Source of the DNA: a virus
Length of the DNA stretch: 64,000 nucleotides
IMG/VR virus record: IMGVR_UViG_3300021962_000025
Span: 1-64,000 of that record
Direction: 5' to 3' (one strand)
A program made the position numbers and the translations under genes. Below the pieces are notes generated by a model that had not been told where the DNA came from, did not search any database, and worked only from the letters and a program-made list of their open reading frames with translations. Position 1 is the first letter of the stretch; each line of letters opens with the position of its first letter. Positions 8,736-40,607 of the stretch are shown here, piece by piece.

Positions 8736-10189
8736 TGAATATAAAAATAGTAACAGTTACGTGGTCACATCAAGAAACTTATGATATAAAAAAGACCACC
8801 CTGTACAAATCGTTTAAGAAATTTAACCCATTTAAGGAGGTATTCCATCATCACTTTAATAGGGGTCACTATTGGCAGGAAGAATCACTTTTCGCAAATA
8901 AGTATGGTAGGGAGAGTGAATACTTACTCTATAAAATATTCTTGTGGAGAGACATTGTCAGGGACATAGAGGCCGATTATATCATTTTCTGTGATGCGAA
9001 TGATGTTGTTTGTTTAACTCATGTTGACGACTTAGTAAATCAATACGATTTAGATAAAAACATTATTGTTGGTCATGAGAAGAACCAATGGCCAACATTA
9101 GAAGCTAAGCAGACTTGGCCCGATTATAAAGATTACAACATTTACGATACCGAAAACAGGAAGTTTCTAAATTCTGGAATGATTATCGCGAAAAAAGAAA
9201 AGTACGTTGAGATGTTGGATAGTATGGTTGAGAATGTGATGTCTAAAGACATAAAAACTTTTAATAATGATCAGGGTGTTTTCACGTATTATTATAACAT
9301 GGGGGTAGAACCAAAGATTAAATTAGATTATACCAATAATTTTGTTGTTAACACCTTTTCTAGATCTCATGATGAATATGTTTTAGAAAATGGTAGATTA
9401 ATCTCTAAGAAGAATCAAACATCCCCTGTTTTCGTACATGATAATGGTTGGAACCACGGTAGTCCTAAATTCCTTAATCATTTTGAATTGAAGAGATTTT
9501 TCATCGATTCTTATCCAAGACTTAAGGATATCTCAAAAGATAGACCAATTGCCCAAACACACCAAGATTACCTTATACGTATAAGAGACGAATACGGATT
9601 CCAACCATCTGTAATTTATGATGTGGGTGCGTGTGTGAATCATTGGAACACGATCGCAAAGGAGGTTTGGCCACAAGCCCAATACTTCTTGTTTGAGGCA
9701 ATGGAAGAATCTGAAGACATTTTTATGGAAGGTACTCATCAGTATGAGATTGGTGTGTTTAGTGATGTCGATGATAAAGAGGTGACATTTTTTAAAAACG
9801 TAACATATCCCGGTGGTAATTCTTATTATATGGAAAACCCTGAACATAGCAGTATGGCCAATGTGTTATTCAATAATCCTTCTAATCAATTCAAAAGAAA
9901 AACAAAGACGTTGGATAGTGTTTTAAAGAGAAGGAACTTTCCCTACCCAGATCTATTAAAAATTGATGTTCAGGGTTGTGAAATAGACATCTTAAAAGGA
10001 TCTACTGACATACTTAAGTATGTGAAGCATCTAATCGTAGAACTACAACACGTTGAGTACAATATAGGGGCTAACCTATCTCATGAGTCAATCCCATTGA
10101 TTGAATCCATGGGATTTGAATTAGTCACCCCTAAGTTCTCATTGTCGAGTCACGCAGATGCTGATTATCATTTTATAAAGAAAAATTAA
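8735..10189 (+). CDS. fusion: PLOD-like GT-A glycosyltransferase + FkbM-family methyltransferase
   Basis: N-half 'IIFCDANDV','EKNQWP','FLNSGMI','NNDQG','VHDNG'; C-half 'IYDVGAC','LLKIDVQGCEIDILKG'. Confidence 0.8.
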   Translation: MNIKIVTVTWSHQETYDIKKTTLYKSFKKFNPFKEVFHHHFNRGHYWQEESLFANKYGRESEYLLYKIFLWRDIVRDIEADYIIFCDANDVVCLTHVDDLVNQYDLDKNIIVGHEKNQWPTLEAKQTWPDYKDYNIYDTENRKFLNSGMIIAKKEKYVEMLDSMVENVMSKDIKTFNNDQGVFTYYYNMGVEPKIKLDYTNNFVVNTFSRSHDEYVLENGRLISKKNQTSPVFVHDNGWNHGSPKFLNHFELKRFFIDSYPRLKDISKDRPIAQTHQDYLIRIRDEYGFQPSVIYDVGACVNHWNTIAKEVWPQAQYFLFEAMEESEDIFMEGTHQYEIGVFSDVDDKEVTFFKNVTYPGGNSYYMENPEHSSMANVLFNNPSNQFKRKTKTLDSVLKRRNFPYPDLLKIDVQGCEIDILKGSTDILKYVKHLIVELQHVEYNIGANLSHESIPLIESMGFELVTPKFSLSSHADADYHFIKKN

Positions 10190-11745
10190 TGGGTTTACCA
10201 AACATAGCATTACATAGTCATCATAACGCATCGGTAGCGGTAGAGTTAGATGGGGATATAGTAACAGTAATAGAATTAGAGAGATTTATAAATTTAAAAA
10301 ACGCAAGTCATTGTTTTTTTAAACCTATTCACGTTCAGGATGTTATTTTAGGTGAAGTTTATGAGTACCTAAGACTCACACATGGATTTACCAAATATGA
10401 TAAATTTATTATTAGTCAGGGGTTTGCGGAGGTTCCGCAAGAGTGGAGAGATCAAATACCGGCCAATGAGTATTTGGTTGATGACCGACATCACCCCGCA
10501 CACGCGGCATCTAGTTTCTACCAATCACCACATCACGAATCACTAATTATTTCATTTGATGGGGGATCCAATGATGGGTGGTTTAATCTTTACCATGGTA
10601 TAAAAGGTGAAGAATTAAAAACAGTTACGAGTTTCGGTATCGATTTAGGGAGTCATTACCACGTTATTGGGTCCGTTTGTGAGGATATTAAGAATTATGA
10701 TGAACTAACGGCCGCGGGTAAAGTATTAGGTCTACAATCTTATGGTAATATTAGATATGAATGGGTCGATTATATAACTGAATTGTTTAAACATGTTCCT
10801 TATTGGCACGACTTAGAATCAAGACTCTTAAAATTGTCTAACCAAATGGGTGTGACATTCTCAAAAGAGAATAAATTGTCAGGACAAATACAATATGATT
10901 TAGCTAGAACCGCACAACACGTATTTGAAACAATATTTTTTGATTCTGTGGATACGTGGGTAAAACAATATAACCTACCTATAGTTTTGACGGGTGGGTG
11001 TGCATTAAACATCACACTTAATACGAGGGTTAAGGAGAGATACCCACATTTAGACGTTTTCGTGGCACCTAATTCAAGTGACTGTGGATTGACCGTTGGT
11101 ACATTATGTAATTTAGTTAAACCCACGAAAACCATTGATATTACATACAAAGGTGTGGGGGTTTTAGATCGATCACTCTTAATGGAGTATGTTAACACTT
11201 ACAATGCTAGAAAGGTAAATGTTGATGCGATTGTACAGGACTTAATTAATCAAAGGATATTGGGACTTATACAGGGTAATTCAGAGCATGGTCCGAGGGC
11301 TTTAGGTAATAGGAGTATACTTTGTTCACCGATACCTTTAGACATGAAAGATACTTTAAACCATAAAGTAAAACATAGGGAGTGGTTTAGACCTTTTGCC
11401 CCGATTGTTAGGGTGGAGGATGTGTCAGAATATTTTGAGTGGGAAGGTGAGAGTAGGTGGATGAATTTCTGTCCTATGGTGAAGAGTGAGTGGAGGGATC
11501 GTCTACCCGCAATTACTCACGTAGATGGAACTGCAAGAGTACAAACAGTGACTAAAGATCAGAATCCACTTATATATGAAATACTAACTCAATTTAAAGA
11601 GAAGACGGGAGTTGGTGTATTGGTTAACACCTCATTTAATGTTGATCGTAAACCAATTTTATCATCATATAAAGACGCATTAAAGGTCTTTCATGAAACC
11701 CAATTAGATAGATTGTATTTAGACGGTTATTACTTCGTTAAATAA
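10189..11745 (+). CDS. O-carbamoyltransferase (NodU/CmcH/TobZ family)
   Basis: 'HNASVA','HHPAHAASSF','FDGG','AGKVLGL','LTGGCALN','EHGPRALGNRSIL','KHREWFRPFAP','HVDGTARVQTV','NTSFN'. Confidence 0.95.
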   Translation: MGLPNIALHSHHNASVAVELDGDIVTVIELERFINLKNASHCFFKPIHVQDVILGEVYEYLRLTHGFTKYDKFIISQGFAEVPQEWRDQIPANEYLVDDRHHPAHAASSFYQSPHHESLIISFDGGSNDGWFNLYHGIKGEELKTVTSFGIDLGSHYHVIGSVCEDIKNYDELTAAGKVLGLQSYGNIRYEWVDYITELFKHVPYWHDLESRLLKLSNQMGVTFSKENKLSGQIQYDLARTAQHVFETIFFDSVDTWVKQYNLPIVLTGGCALNITLNTRVKERYPHLDVFVAPNSSDCGLTVGTLCNLVKPTKTIDITYKGVGVLDRSLLMEYVNTYNARKVNVDAIVQDLINQRILGLIQGNSEHGPRALGNRSILCSPIPLDMKDTLNHKVKHREWFRPFAPIVRVEDVSEYFEWEGESRWMNFCPMVKSEWRDRLPAITHVDGTARVQTVTKDQNPLIYEILTQFKEKTGVGVLVNTSFNVDRKPILSSYKDALKVFHETQLDRLYLDGYYFVK

Positions 11746-12516: not shown

Positions 12517-12559
12517 ACTATAATATACAAATTTATGTTTTGATTGTATATTTATTAAT

Positions 12560-19517: not shown

Positions 19518-21791
19518 ATGAAATTATTAGATATCATATTGGAGAATAAAGTACCATCAGATCAGATGGAACAGGCCAGTCTCCTAAAAAACTTATTTAA
19601 AAACTCTACGAAGAATTTATCGGTTTTAACCCATGACGGATTAAAGGCGGTCGATTCTGTTTTAGCGAAAGACATTAAAGCCGTTTTTAAATCAAGAACC
19701 ATAACTGGAGTGAAGAATCTTGATGATTTAGTTGTACAGATGTCTAAAGGAACACTTTCAGCGAAAGGTGCTGGGGATTTAGCCGTTGGTTTACTAAAAA
19801 CAAAAGGAGTTAGTTCCATACAAATTAGACAAGTTGCCACTCAGTGGGTAGAACAACCCGGATTCATAAAAGCATGGGCCTCTAGAGGAAAAAATCCAAC
19901 AGTTAAGGAGTTGATGGCATCGGGTAAAGGTTATACTGAGGACGCGGCGAAGGAGATTGTTGCGGCATGTAAAAAGAGTAATAAATTCCAAAACAGCATT
20001 AAAAACGTAACAGGTACGACGGGTAAAACAGGTGCATCTACAGGTAAAACAGGCGCATCTTCAGGTAAAGGTGGGACACCAAAACCTGGAGGAGCAGGAT
20101 CGGTACCTCCGATATCAACATGGCAAAGAATTAAAAACGCGGCAAAATCACCAGGAAAGACCTTAATTAAAGGTGCGACCAAGGTGGTTAATGTTGCTAG
20201 AAAAGGTTATAGAAGTTATGGTTTTATAAAATTAATGACTTGGTTGGCGGTATTTGGTATTGGCGGAATTATGTTATACGATTTATGGAAAAAATTAATT
20301 GGGGGGTCTGACACAATTCCAACCGACGACGAATTAAGAAAAATGGACGATTGGGTAAATTGTATTTTAAAACCTTTACAGGATGATGATGGCGCTGAGA
20401 TTGTTGAGGCAGGTGATGAAGTAGGTTTGAAATACAGTATCGCCGAATTAGGTGGTGTGGAAACTGGTGGACACGTTATTTTCTATTCAGACCATACTAT
20501 TAAATCCGCTAACGGTAATACAGGAACGTGGTCATGTAATCAAGATGGATTACTAAGCGAACAGCAGTCAGAGGGTGGTGGAGAATTATCCGCAGCTCAG
20601 TTGAGTGCAGTAATTGACGAATTAGACGATCAACTTAGTGGTGATTTCTTTGAGTCTGACAGTACCGATATGATGGATGCTCTTAATGCGTTAAGAGGGG
20701 TTGTTGGTAAAACCTATAAAGGAAGAGATGCTATCGAGATCCTTAAGATAAACTACCCCAAAGTAGTTGGTATGTCCTTAGAACAACATGTTAATGAATT
20801 GACCAATTTAGACTTCGAGGCAATTGAGGCGAAAGAAGATTTCTTAAATATTTTGAGATCATCAAACTCAGGTGGGGGTCAACAACAATCGGGCGATTCT
20901 GATAATGCAGATACTTCACAGGGAGACGGAAATCCAAACACAGGACTTTCACATCTTACCATCACATGGGATTCCGCGGATAATGGTGGTGGAGGCGGAG
21001 GAGGAGCCATTATAGATAATTCAAACATCAAATTCAAACCATGTGGAGATTTCCCATTTGATTTGGGTTGTATTAGTGACAAAATTAAAGAATTACAGAC
21101 ATGTTTAAATAAAACAGGATCAGTCCTCAAAGTAGATGGTTACTACGGTAAAAAGACACACAAAGATCTTTTAGATATGGAAATGTTCGCTGATGGGGAC
21201 TCTAACGATACTATCATCACTAAAGTAATGTTTGACAACTTCATGAAGAGGTGTGATGATAATAATACTATTGTGACAACTGGAGATACAACCACAACTT
21301 CAGGAACGACCACAGGTGATACAGCTACCGTTTCGGGGTCAACTACTGATGACACCACTCAAACAGTTGAGGTACCTGTATTGGATACAAGGGCAATGAT
21401 TGATAAGTTCGGTGCTGAAAGATTGGAAAACATCAAAAAGATGACAGTCGACGGTAAAGTAATCAACGATATAATGGAAGACTATTTAGACTTTAGAAGT
21501 GGTAAATACGTTCTTAAAGGTGAAGTTGAGTTAACCGAGAATCAGTTATATGCAATTAATAGAGTAATGTCAGGTAGAGGTTATGTTTTCTTAAAAGATA
21601 AGGAAAAGGCCAATGACCAAGGTGAAGTAGTATTCTCAAAATATGTATGGGTGGCTGATAGAACATTAGATAATAAATCCAGAAGAGAGATTAGACGTAC
21701 CGCACGTTCTAACGAAAGAGCGGGTAGAAGAATCGATAGAGCTCAAGACAGATTAGATAATTTAAAAGCACAAACTTATGATGGTCAATAA
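19518..21791 (+). CDS. large virion-associated protein, one TM, possible PG-binding-like segment, Gly/Thr low-complexity linkers
   Basis: 'IKELQTCLN...LKVDGYYGKKT' resembles PG_binding_1; TM 'LMTWLAVFGIGGIMLY'. Confidence 0.7.
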   Translation: MKLLDIILENKVPSDQMEQASLLKNLFKNSTKNLSVLTHDGLKAVDSVLAKDIKAVFKSRTITGVKNLDDLVVQMSKGTLSAKGAGDLAVGLLKTKGVSSIQIRQVATQWVEQPGFIKAWASRGKNPTVKELMASGKGYTEDAAKEIVAACKKSNKFQNSIKNVTGTTGKTGASTGKTGASSGKGGTPKPGGAGSVPPISTWQRIKNAAKSPGKTLIKGATKVVNVARKGYRSYGFIKLMTWLAVFGIGGIMLYDLWKKLIGGSDTIPTDDELRKMDDWVNCILKPLQDDDGAEIVEAGDEVGLKYSIAELGGVETGGHVIFYSDHTIKSANGNTGTWSCNQDGLLSEQQSEGGGELSAAQLSAVIDELDDQLSGDFFESDSTDMMDALNALRGVVGKTYKGRDAIEILKINYPKVVGMSLEQHVNELTNLDFEAIEAKEDFLNILRSSNSGGGQQQSGDSDNADTSQGDGNPNTGLSHLTITWDSADNGGGGGGGAIIDNSNIKFKPCGDFPFDLGCISDKIKELQTCLNKTGSVLKVDGYYGKKTHKDLLDMEMFADGDSNDTIITKVMFDNFMKRCDDNNTIVTTGDTTTTSGTTTGDTATVSGSTTDDTTQTVEVPVLDTRAMIDKFGAERLENIKKMTVDGKVINDIMEDYLDFRSGKYVLKGEVELTENQLYAINRVMSGRGYVFLKDKEKANDQGEVVFSKYVWVADRTLDNKSRREIRRTARSNERAGRRIDRAQDRLDNLKAQTYDGQ

Positions 21792-22437
21792 TATTGAAAG
21801 TATAGTTAAAAAGACATTAAATGAGAGATATGAAATAAACAGATCTCTACGTCTTATCATTGAAAATGAAGAAACTTCTGATGATGAAAAATTAGATGGT
21901 GTACTTGATGCACTCATGGCATTATCAGATGAGGGTAAATCTGAAGAGGAGATAGAAGGGTCATTGGACGAGAGCATTACTGGTTGGTTAACAAAAACAT
22001 TTGGACTGGGTAATGACAAATCTTCGGATGGGGGAGGTGACACCTCTCTTTCTTTGGGTAACTTGGGTTCTAAAGCAGGATCTGGAGTGTTTTCACAAAT
22101 GAGAGAGTGGTTTATCAGAAAAGGTTTAGGATTTTTAGGTTTTGAGGGAGCCCTGGCCGACGCTATGGCGGCGATGTTTGCTGATTTAGATATAAGAGCA
22201 ATAATCGCATTGTTCAGAGGTGGTAATGCTTGTCAACAGTACGGTGATCAAATTGCCGATGCGATCCTCGAAGGTATTGGTACCTATGTTATGGGTGGTG
22301 CCGAAAATAACAGTATGGCACAAAACTTACTTAGAAATATGGTATTTGAATTTGAAAAATCATCTCAAATCGGTGAGATTATTGCTAGTAAAGTGTGTAG
22401 TTTCAATGTGAGGGGAGCACTGACAAATTCAATTTAA
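21778..22437 (+). CDS. hypothetical late protein
   Basis: ORF in late operon, followed by terminator. Confidence 0.7.
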   Translation: MMVNNIESIVKKTLNERYEINRSLRLIIENEETSDDEKLDGVLDALMALSDEGKSEEEIEGSLDESITGWLTKTFGLGNDKSSDGGGDTSLSLGNLGSKAGSGVFSQMREWFIRKGLGFLGFEGALADAMAAMFADLDIRAIIALFRGGNACQQYGDQIADAILEGIGTYVMGGAENNSMAQNLLRNMVFEFEKSSQIGEIIASKVCSFNVRGALTNSI

Positions 22438-22457
22438 AAATTTTAAAAATATATGTT

Positions 22458-22487
22458 AAATGACCCTCCAAGTGAGGGTCATTTTTT
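22458..22487 (+). terminator. Rho-independent terminator
   Basis: AAATGACCCTC-caagt-GAGGGTCATTT plus T-tract. Confidence 0.85.
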
Positions 22488-22508
22488 GTTTATGAGATAT
22501 TTATTAGT

Positions 22509-22605
22509 ATGAGATCAGTACTTTGGTCGGTACTCGGTTGATAAACGAAAATAACGAAAAGGAGGTGTTACTTATCTCGGCAAAGGGGTCATTGACCTCT
22601 TTGTT
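22509..22605 (+). ncRNA. putative late small RNA carrying a 12-nt extended Shine-Dalgarno (AAAGGAGGTGTT) without downstream ATG
   Basis: Flanked by TATTTAT (22498-22504) and hairpin+U tract (about 22583-22603); only a 10-codon ORF at its 5' end; shares motifs with 28695-28762. Confidence 0.5.
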
Positions 22606-22873
22606 CGTTTACGACTTTTTGAAGTTCTTTAATCGCCTTATCCTTCAAACTTTCCTCCACTAATGACTCTTCTATTTTATATTTTTTCTTATATCGTTCT
22701 TCAAAAGAGGATCCCACTCCGATTTCTAAAATTTCCGCATCGTTTGGTATTAGAGGTTTCCTCTTCCCCATATCAATGACATCATCGACTAAGATGTCGT
22801 GAAAAACTTTCAGGTTTAGTTTTTCCTTCTTTCGATATATTGTTTTATAAACTACAACTACAGGTGGTTTCAT
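22589..22873 (-). CDS. hypothetical protein
   Basis: TATTTAT 5 nt upstream of ATG. Confidence 0.65.
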   Translation of the reverse strand: MKPPVVVVYKTIYRKKEKLNLKVFHDILVDDVIDMGKRKPLIPNDAEILEIGVGSSFEERYKKKYKIEESLVEESLKDKAIKELQKVVNEQRGQ

Positions 22874-22886
22874 ATCATATAAATAG

Positions 22887-22912
22887 AAAAAAGGGATCCG
22901 AAGATCCCTTTT
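22887..22912 (-). terminator. terminator after tmRNA (bidirectional-capable)
   Basis: AAAAGGGATC-cgaa-GATCCCTTTT. Confidence 0.8.
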
Positions 22913-23324
22913 GGTGGAGGTGGCGGGGTTCGAACCCGCGTCTTGTTCGTCCCAACCATAAAGGACTACACGTTTAGGTTAAGGTTTTTCATACCTTCCA
23001 AAATATTTGGTTCCTATTTTGACATTGTTACCAACAACTGTGTCGAGTTCACTTTTAATAAGGTAGTACTCTGAACGAGACCTTTGACACTCCAAGTGGT
23101 ATCACACTATAAGACTTCTGTTCCAAGGTACATGTCCACCGACCCGTCGTAGGAATAACCTTAGGCTACTGCTACTTTAGAATCAACAGATACGAGACCC
23201 ATTAATTCCATTTGTGAATAAACGTTGCCGTCTAAAAAAACGTCACCATAGATTAAAGTGATAGGAAACATCTCACTACGTGCCCCGTATGACTGACTAC
23301 GCCAATCAATGCCATGTCACCCCC
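22912..23324 (-). ncRNA. ssrA: tmRNA, one-piece; tag (A)GNVYSQMELMGLVSVDSKVAVA*
   Basis: 5' GGGGGUG pairs with 3' CACCUCC-A-CCA including the G3.U alanine determinant; T-arm GCGGG-UUCGAAC-CCCGC; resume context UUAGAC-GGC; tag frame 23229-23161. Confidence 0.93.
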
Positions 23325-23331
23325 GTACTAA

Positions 23332-23592
23332 TTACTTAGTGTTATAAGGTTGTCTTCCATTACCTGAAGAACCACCTTGTTTTGGTTTGTTATTGTAGTA
23401 TCTCTTCTTCTTTGGTTTTGGAGATTCTGACAATTCAATATCAGATTTAATTTCCGCACTTTTGGGTAACCCTGTACCTGATGGTTTTGGGGTTCTGTTT
23501 GCGGGCTTAGGTCTTGAAACAGGTGCCGGTTTAACAGCGACGGTTTCCTTTACTCCAAAGAGTCTTTTAAAAAATGAAATAATTTTGTTCAT
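23332..23592 (-). CDS. small basic Pro/Lys-rich protein
   Basis: ORF between promoter 23611-23641 and ssrA. Confidence 0.6.
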   Translation of the reverse strand: MNKIISFFKRLFGVKETVAVKPAPVSRPKPANRTPKPSGTGLPKSAEIKSDIELSESPKPKKKRYYNNKPKQGGSSGNGRQPYNTK

Positions 23593-25582: not shown

Positions 25583-25585
25583 ATT

Positions 25586-25661
25586 AGGTTGAGGTAGGAA
25601 TCGAACCTATCACGTCACGTCCCGTGTTTGCGGGATTGCTCTACCACTGAGCTACTCAACC
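25586..25661 (-). ncRNA. tRNA-like RNA with aberrant 6-nt anticodon loop (CAAACA)
   Basis: Canonical acceptor GGTTGAG/CTCAACC and D-arm GCTC-AGTGGTA-GAGC, T-loop TTCGATT; anticodon arm TCCCG-CAAACA-CGGGA lacks U33. Confidence 0.7.
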
Positions 25662-25668
25662 CGTTTGA

Positions 25669-28694: not shown

Positions 28695-28762
28695 GGTCTA
28701 CATTGGGTTCAACCCCAATGCTTTAACGAGAAAAAACGAAAAGGTAATCGGCAAAGAGAACC
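28695..28762. ncRNA. putative structured RNA paralogous to 22509-22605
   Basis: Shares AACGA..AACGAAAAGG and CGGCAAAG blocks; hairpin CATTGGG/CCCAATG; no ORF. Confidence 0.4.
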
Positions 28763-28808
28763 TTCGATGTATAAATATATATTTTTTTTAAAAAAGTTCA
28801 GATTTTAG

Positions 28809-40389: not shown

Positions 40390-40418
40390 CGAAAGGTGTC
40401 ATTAGACACCTTTTTTTA
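40390..40418. terminator. bidirectional terminator between head gene and rpsU
   Basis: AAAGGTGTC-atta-GACACCTTT with T-tract. Confidence 0.75.
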
Positions 40419-40607
40419 TTTCTGTTCTTGGTCTTTTAATTGTTGAATGTACTGAGCCTTCTTTTTTTGAAGTCTACGGGAAACTGACGGTTTAGTGAAT
40501 TCTTGACGATCTCTAAGGAATTGGACTTGTTTCGTATTCCTAACTTTAGTTTTTAATTTTTTAAGGGCTTGATCGATGTTCCCGTTGAAGACTTTTACTA
40601 TTAGCAT
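40416..40607 (-). CDS. rpsU: 30S ribosomal protein bS21
   Basis: MLIVKVFNGNIDQALKKLKTKV...LRDRQEFTKPSVSRR...KAQYIQ; start reassigned to 40607; TATTTAT at 40630-40636, no SD. Confidence 0.9.
   Translation of the reverse strand: MLIVKVFNGNIDQALKKLKTKVRNTKQVQFLRDRQEFTKPSVSRRLQKKKAQYIQQLKDQEQK

Follow-up and report, generated by a model that had tools for sequence, protein, structure and literature searches.

The locus lies in an IMG/VR virus record of 183,758 bp with a CheckV completeness estimate of 59%. Unless stated otherwise, coordinates refer to the window, i.e. the whole stretch of 64,000 nucleotides (positions 1 to 64,000 of the record) that was analysed. Its gene cargo includes a tRNA cluster and a tmRNA gene on the minus strand. 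A bS21 gene on the reverse strand is flanked by the terminase-portal genes on one side and the gene of the major head protein on the other, which is the layout of Bacteroidetes bS21 phages (Chen et al., 2022; PMC9723584). The genome is essentially free of SD sequences, with the 4-base SD core upstream of 5 of 154 gene starts; the gene calls behind this count, as well as behind the box positions given below, come from a crude ORF rule. In the gap between a 219-aa gene and a convergent 94-aa gene, a compact unit was found, which together with its surroundings comprises the following features:

22458-22487 (+), intrinsic terminator of the upstream 219-aa gene (21778-22437); 22458-22484/7 in the terminator scan
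22496-22504 (+), promoter-like box (G)ATATTTAT, here GATATTTAT
22511-22610 (+), predicted small RNA of about 100 nt with both ends putative; a conserved block in 108+ distinct relatives
22513-22539 (+), hairpin P1 with the near-invariant loop UUGGUC (22523-22528); compensatory changes in 9 of 10 pairs
22540-22557 (+), conserved GAUAA, then an A-rich single-stranded linker ending in AACGAAA
22558-22569 (+), AAAGGAGGTGTT, an extended SD and 12-base complement of the AACACC-type Bacteroidota 16S 3′ tail
22562-22578 (+), short hairpin P2, GAGGU (22562-22566) with AUCUC (22574-22578), which half-covers the SD
22581-22610 (+), P3, a terminator-like GC-rich hairpin (22581-22590/22594-22603) with a U-rich tail
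22589-22873 (−), convergent 94-aa gene with its stop codon in the P3 loop; found in window-type (type A) relatives only
22912-23324 (−), phage tmRNA gene, convergent to the small RNA; neighbourhood conserved across the family
40416-40607 (−), phage bS21 gene, SD-less, with a ATATTTAT box before it

The terminator, box, SD, missing ATG and 3′ hairpin from which the original prediction started are all present at these positions, and its remark that no comparable SD stood before the inspected gene starts agrees with the rarity of the SD core. Two of its details held in part. The 3′ hairpin and U tract exist, but the strict terminator rule of the scan does not accept P3 because the U-run lies partly within the stem. 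The 10-codon reading frame MRSVLWSVLG (starting at 22509) is present in the window but not conserved, as most members, among them relative L022 and all of type B, lack its ATG. Directly 3′ of AAAGGAGGTGTT follows ACTTATCTC, which offers no ATG, GTG or TTG. The 11/12-mer of the SD occurs once in the whole record, in which the second-best tail complement amounts to 10 bases, and 22511-22610 folds better than shuffled sequences (z about −3.07 to −3.2). A stretch at 28695-28777 shares AACGAAAAGG and CGGCAAAG with the unit and is devoid of P1, SD and P2; neither the covariance model described below (filters off, E ≤ 10) nor an nhmmer search of the whole record recovered it.

The box, called a late motif in the original prediction, proved to be a genuine genomic signal: ATATTTAT occurs 46 times in the record, with 37 copies in intergenic DNA, which makes up 5.7% of the genome, and 30 copies at most 80 nt upstream of a co-oriented start. 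Among the genes behind it are those for the portal, an endolysin-like peptidase and bS21, the latter without SD as had been claimed. Only seven intergenic copies lack a gene downstream, and the box at 22497 is among them. Across the small RNA family its ATATTTA is invariant, at a fixed distance to P1. At many genes ATATTTAT is found only 12-14 nt before the ATG (window positions 12548, 17948, 37816 and 63416; genome positions 67964, 72843, 86827, 109202, 153197 and 158922), and if the box is a −10-like element, the corresponding late mRNAs would be leaderless or nearly so.

Relatives were obtained along several routes. The 94-aa protein has 42 homologues in metagenomes, and their contigs show a common gene order of glycosyltransferase, small basic protein, tmRNA, 94-aa gene, unit and a convergent 219-230-aa gene. 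The unit itself is near-identical across phages in which the neighbouring protein is only 57-78% identical and the adjacent terminator wholly different; since the stem of this terminator differs in every relative, 22458-22487 lies outside the conserved unit. At the other end, conservation stops at the U-rich tail 3′ of P3. A scan with a degenerate pattern of SD, AUCUC and the 5′ strand of P3 led to 88 metagenome contigs of lake, estuary and seawater origin. As this pattern fixes the SD, a second scan used box, P1 loop and AUAA alone and resulted in 101 viral contigs of up to 334 kb. AAGGAGG was retained in 63 of the 67 distinct variants retrieved in this way, the exceptions being three GGGGG and one AGGGAGG, so that the 12-mer's core is indeed conserved at homologous loci, the point on which the original prediction had made itself depend.

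A covariance model built on 108 distinct members, whose E-values are rough, detected exactly one copy in each of 100 loci (83-135 bits). In the window it gave a single match at 22497-22625 (107.3 bits), and nhmmer on the whole record likewise found a single copy. When the whole window was searched with Rfam 15, no family apart from tmRNA and tRNAs exceeded its gathering threshold; a sensitive Rfam scan of 22440-22660 reached at most 21.7 bits, compared with thresholds of 43-115, and this on the upstream terminator. A match to a described Rfam family, which would have spoken against a new RNA, is therefore lacking in Rfam 15, and a full-text search of the literature yielded no description of such an RNA. 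The small RNA belongs to a large RNA family absent from Rfam.

Other routes were unproductive. Neither the locus nor a type-B unit had a blastn match among cultured phages, and the upstream 219-aa protein used as bait gave no relatives in viral contigs. Exact 16-17-mers of the SD and P1 loop, searched in viral contigs, led beyond two true relatives to ordinary SDs followed by ATG or to chance matches (L009-L011 and L014-L019; about 40 chance 16-mers are expected from a rough estimate of the collection size). One of these contigs, unrelated L016, carries AAAAGGTTGTACTTTGGTCGGT twice in two 5′ leaders (10160-10190 and 10465-10495); the motif shares 16 bases with P1 of the window, which was judged a chance overlap. 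Distant homologues of the 94-aa protein (41-46% identity; L003-L008 and L034-L036) were rejected as family loci, as the small RNA unit is missing there. The 94-aa family has no Pfam or PHROG match, and its last four codons coincide with the 3′ strand of P3.

In the model-based alignment 93.8% of the cells are paired, a percentage inflated by fitting the alignment to the structure. Changes on both sides of a pair were found in 221 cells, compared with 63.8 ± 6.2 after shuffling and 10-44 when the partners were slid by 1-3 columns. Judging by these slid controls and the number of pair types, the covariation is probably genuine despite the structure-fitted alignment. It resides in P1 (compensatory changes in 9 of 10 pairs) and in P3 (4 of 10 pairs, with 99% of cells paired). 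Conservation and covariation in related bS21-encoding phages, which had been proposed as a check, have thus been observed. Both strands of P2 and the SD are invariant in the alignment; therefore, covariation is silent on the P2 helix and on whether the SD is exposed or masked. The P2 loop varies from 1 to 12 nt, usually 6-10, and its 5′ part lengthens the 16S complement. A long-range helix P0 (AAACGAA with UUCGUUU) is weakly supported, with 36-37 of 100 sequences unpaired at two pairs. G-U pairs are frequent, e.g. in 71, 98 and 51 of 100 sequences at three positions. As these would turn into A-C mismatches on the opposite strand, the SD-bearing plus strand is the functional one, and a minus-strand reading, in which the 3′ UTR of the 94-aa gene would mimic the 16S tail, was rejected. 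Judged from its sequence, the unit has the marks of a small RNA gene, namely a box enriched upstream of genes, covariation in P1 and P3, and a P3 hairpin with U-rich tail. We consider it very probable that the locus encodes a real non-coding RNA.

Against a 16S tail of the AACACC type, of which the last 11 bases were those of the oligonucleotide of Jha et al. and the upstream part was taken from sampled genomes, 104 of 108 units carry an exact complement of 9-13 bases with a mean duplex energy of −19.4 kcal/mol; the window has 12 bases and −19.1 kcal/mol. The hallmark of rpsU in Flavobacteriales, where typically a single gene has such an extended SD, is 9-13 SD-anti-SD pairs at −14 to −21 kcal/mol (McNutt et al., 2023; PMC9976891). 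The pairing of the small RNA with the tail (9-13+ bases, about −19 kcal/mol) falls in this rpsU range, in line with the rpsU-leader idea of the original prediction. The bases following GGAGG are dominated by UAUUC (42 units), UGUUC (17), UAUCC (13) and UGAU-type sequences. In 59 Bacteroidota genomes the 16S tail just 5′ of CCUCC reads AUCACC, AAUACC, AACACC or rarely AUUACC; the 16S gene of a Saprospiraceae MAG, for instance, ends in GGAAUACCUCCUUU (AAUACC type). The small RNA classes UGUUC, UAUUC and UGAU are exact complements of the common tails AACACC, AAUACC and AUCACC, respectively, and when natural tail variants are allowed, the best exact run comprises 11-16 bases in 107 of 124 units. 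This mirroring of tail variants, seen at the level of sequence classes in phages without assigned hosts, is our strongest argument for the rRNA tail as the presumably selected partner. As no phage was assigned to a host, the agreement between SD extension and tail is a correlation of classes and not of pairs. Similarity of bS21 assigned no hosts either, as one and the same Flavobacteriaceae MAG gives the best score with every phage bS21 protein. On balance, the small RNA probably acts by pairing with the 16S tail.

The GGAGG core and the P1 loop might instead be bound by a protein, such as a phage RNA-binding protein or bS21, or by another RNA, with the likeness to an SD being incidental. Such a partner would account for the P1 loop, since UUGGUC and GAUAA are conserved like the SD and the ribosome-tail model gives neither a role; the complement of the P1 loop is absent from two Bacteroidota 16S genes and not in excess in the phage genome. 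Pairing of the P1 loop with phage leaders as a trans-SD was rejected on the same grounds (23 occurrences of GACCAAA, 22.7 expected). However, the complementarity to the tail continues into the bases on either side of GGAGG, and these bases follow the natural tail variants, which a protein site does not predict. The phage tmRNA was considered as the RNA partner, as the 3′ strand of its acceptor stem resembles an anti-SD. Within the family the stem varies (GGGGGUG, GGGGAUG, GGGGACG, GGGCCUG, with G3-U kept), and so does the anti-SD-like strand (CACCUCC, CAUCUCC, CGUCUCC, CAGGUCC), whereas GGAGG of the small RNA stays constant; hence the two RNAs are not paired there, and the acceptor strand is excluded as partner of the core. 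Binding of the core by something other than the rRNA tail is unlikely from these data.

A translated frame behind the SD was another observation that would have contradicted the original prediction. Among 137 distinct units, none has an ATG, GTG or TTG 3-14 nt downstream of GGAGG, and no conserved ORF was detected in the units. In 47 distinct loops no start codon was found, compared with 7.7 ± 2.3 after shuffling, and 1 of 2000 shuffles was as low, in a test weakened by the relatedness of the sequences. The sole near-cognate codon is the AUC of the invariant AUCUC, which in 129 of 137 units stands 6-10 nt downstream of GGAGG, mostly at 8 nt. It might allow the RNA to serve as a tiny mRNA of the rreB type, whose extended SD loads ribosomes at AUC and leads to a micro-peptide (often ISAKGS) or a stalled ribosome. 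The spacing of the invariant AUC would suit this function, a common frame of 6 codons ends in the P3 loop in 60 units, and there is a precedent in rreB, a small RNA whose SD is very long and which is strongly associated with 30S subunits and weakly translated (PMC5711450). Yet the AUC frame ranges from 1 to 48 codons and is shifted by 1-nt indels in the P3 loop even between close relatives, and canonical start codons are never present. Moreover, the encoded peptide lies wholly on the conserved strands of P2 and P3, so that its conservation is explained by structure. We regard translation from AUC as quite unlikely. As the core matches the 16S tail and no gene follows, the RNA probably binds host ribosomes and is not translated.

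In the whole family the small RNA gene and the phage tmRNA gene converge, with a tmRNA in the retrieved flanks of 99 unit-bearing loci. In type B the two genes are often just 25-45 nt apart, and in type A only, the 94-aa gene lies between them. In the window the tmRNA (79.9 bits in Rfam) has a tag ending in VAVA and its own terminator at 22912-22889; tags in the family end in VAVA, VAA or VEVA. A gene for SmpB was not found in the record, which represents a 59% complete genome. The original prediction had missed this linkage, for which we offer no explanation beyond a shared island of RNA genes. The convergence could be taken as a hint to a cis-acting transcription element, in which P3 is a conditional terminator, read-through is antisense to the tmRNA or 94-aa gene, and the SD serves as sensor or anti-terminator. 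In sequences of the L025 type, inspection by eye revealed a possible alternative pairing of the SD with the 3′ strand of P3. This helix has no covariation support, however, and in many members, e.g. the GACCUUUUG types, the 3′ strand of P3 is not complementary to the SD. In addition, the tmRNA's own terminator separates the two RNA genes, as does a protein gene in type A. A cis-acting role is therefore very unlikely. An element acting as DNA (a site bound by a protein, or a signal for packaging or replication) would be compatible with conservation by itself, but is extremely improbable given compensatory changes in two helices and one-strand G-U pairs, both signatures of selection on RNA, and the bracketing of the unit by a promoter-like box and a terminator-like hairpin.

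The reading that we prefer, with a probability of roughly 0.55, is that of a trans-acting RNA of about 100 nt that pairs with the anti-SD tail of the host 16S rRNA; competition with rpsU, while phage bS21 replaces host bS21, would be the likeliest outcome. In Bacteroidota, bS21, bS18 and bS6 normally keep the tail buried, only ribosomes lacking bS21 can use it, and the host autoregulates rpsU via an equally long SD (PMC7797042; PMC9976891). The likely targets are therefore 30S subunits without bS21, in which alone the tail is exposed; they may be few, since SD oligonucleotides are not bound by ribosomes that contain bS21 (PMC7797042). All seven of the large unit-bearing records that were searched encode bS21. 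Its closest cellular relatives are from Flavobacteriaceae and Saprospiraceae, and the rpsU genes of these relatives carry SDs. According to the proposed mechanism, the small RNA would be transcribed from the late-type ATATTTAT promoter and end at the P3 hairpin. A single-stranded or weakly masked stretch of 9-16 bases would then pair with the 16S tail, with the A-rich single strand 5′ of GGAGG as a possible toehold, the 5-bp P2 being by prediction far weaker than the tail duplex, and a start codon presumably being deliberately absent. In this way the RNA might capture 30S subunits with an exposed tail or pull the tail out, and out-compete host rpsU mRNA. Host bS21 would no longer be replenished, and the SD-less, co-expressed phage bS21 could take its place. 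The original prediction of an rpsU-leader mimic is borne out in part: the long SD has the strength of that of rpsU, but host rpsU leaders and the small RNA share nothing beyond the SD, so the term holds for the SD alone.

The specific role in competition with rpsU or in bS21 exchange is more doubtful than the pairing with the tail, and we put it forward tentatively. How phage bS21 displaces host bS21 has been raised as an open question (PMC9723584; PMC9976891), and McNutt et al. speculated that phages may encode aids for bS21 exchange and that rpsU autoregulation is a host counter-measure (PMC9976891). A possible though doubtful extension of this idea is that the RNA is a ribosome-remodelling factor that extracts or traps the tail from the bS21/bS18/bS6 pocket, blocks rescue by rpsU and drives the exchange. 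If so, it would be the exchange-facilitating product suggested by these authors, and the bases matching the tail would indicate the host range of uncultured giant phages. The tail-pairing model accounts neither for the invariant P1 loop nor for the constant linkage with the tmRNA.

The closest known counterparts differ from the small RNA in several respects. With the extended SD of rpsU (PMC9976891; PMC7797042) it shares a tail complement of 9-13+ bases at about −14 to −21 kcal/mol or stronger, the occurrence as the single such sequence in an otherwise SD-lacking genome, and 30S subunits without bS21 as the expected partner. In contrast to rpsU, it has no start codon (0 of 137) and no rpsU ORF, the SD-less bS21 gene lies 18 kb away, and it is a phage-encoded, stand-alone unit with two conserved hairpins, its own promoter-like box and a terminator-like hairpin. 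The rreB/rreR RNAs of alpha-proteobacteria, with an SD of 16-17 nt (Hahn et al., 2016; PMC5711450), are likewise short and have an unusually long complement to 16S. However, rreB encodes a conserved ORF of 14 aa that starts with GTG, and its hosts use SDs (PMC5711450); small ORFs of 14-18 aa, with GTG or ATG behind the long SD, characterise the rreB/rreR group. The small RNA has neither a canonical start nor a conserved ORF, would meet host ribosomes that normally hide their anti-SD, and shows no sequence similarity to rreB. From the missing start codon and ORF, it is a member of neither group. With regard to mode of action, CsrB and RsmZ titrate CsrA, and 6S RNA titrates RNA polymerase, by displaying the motif of a substrate. 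By analogy, the small RNA may follow the same logic of a non-coding decoy with a displayed motif; it is not homologous to any of them, its predicted target is the rRNA tail instead of a protein, and it mostly presents a single GGAGG at a stem junction and not several GGA motifs in hairpin loops as in CsrB and RsmZ.

In Rfam 15 and the full-text literature we found no described kind of natural RNA to which the small RNA corresponds, and within these sources it would be the first natural non-coding RNA with a conserved anti-SD-pairing function. To our knowledge, the only known use of the hidden Bacteroidota tail is the autoregulation of bS21. Many aquatic giant phages carry bS21, and a conserved ORF-less RNA that matches the tail with the strength of rpsU is a concrete candidate for the displacement question; in addition, lake and marine viromes gain an abundant new RNA family. 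Should the bases that match the tail track hosts, they would give a hint, at the level of sequence, to the lineage of the hosts of uncultured phages. The small RNA can be synthesised and tested with existing Flavobacterium johnsoniae assays.

Two further genes in the neighbourhood deserve mention. Directly upstream of the tmRNA, at 23332-23592 on the minus strand, a very basic low-complexity protein of 86 aa is encoded behind a ATATTTAT box; a gene for 78-89 aa is found at the same place in all syntenic contigs, and its product may bind RNA as a partner of the tmRNA or the small RNA. Within the tRNA cluster, a tRNA-like gene at 25585-25662 (minus strand) has an abnormal anticodon loop, is reported as 'tRNA-???' by ARAGORN and scores 38.8 bits with the Rfam tRNA model.
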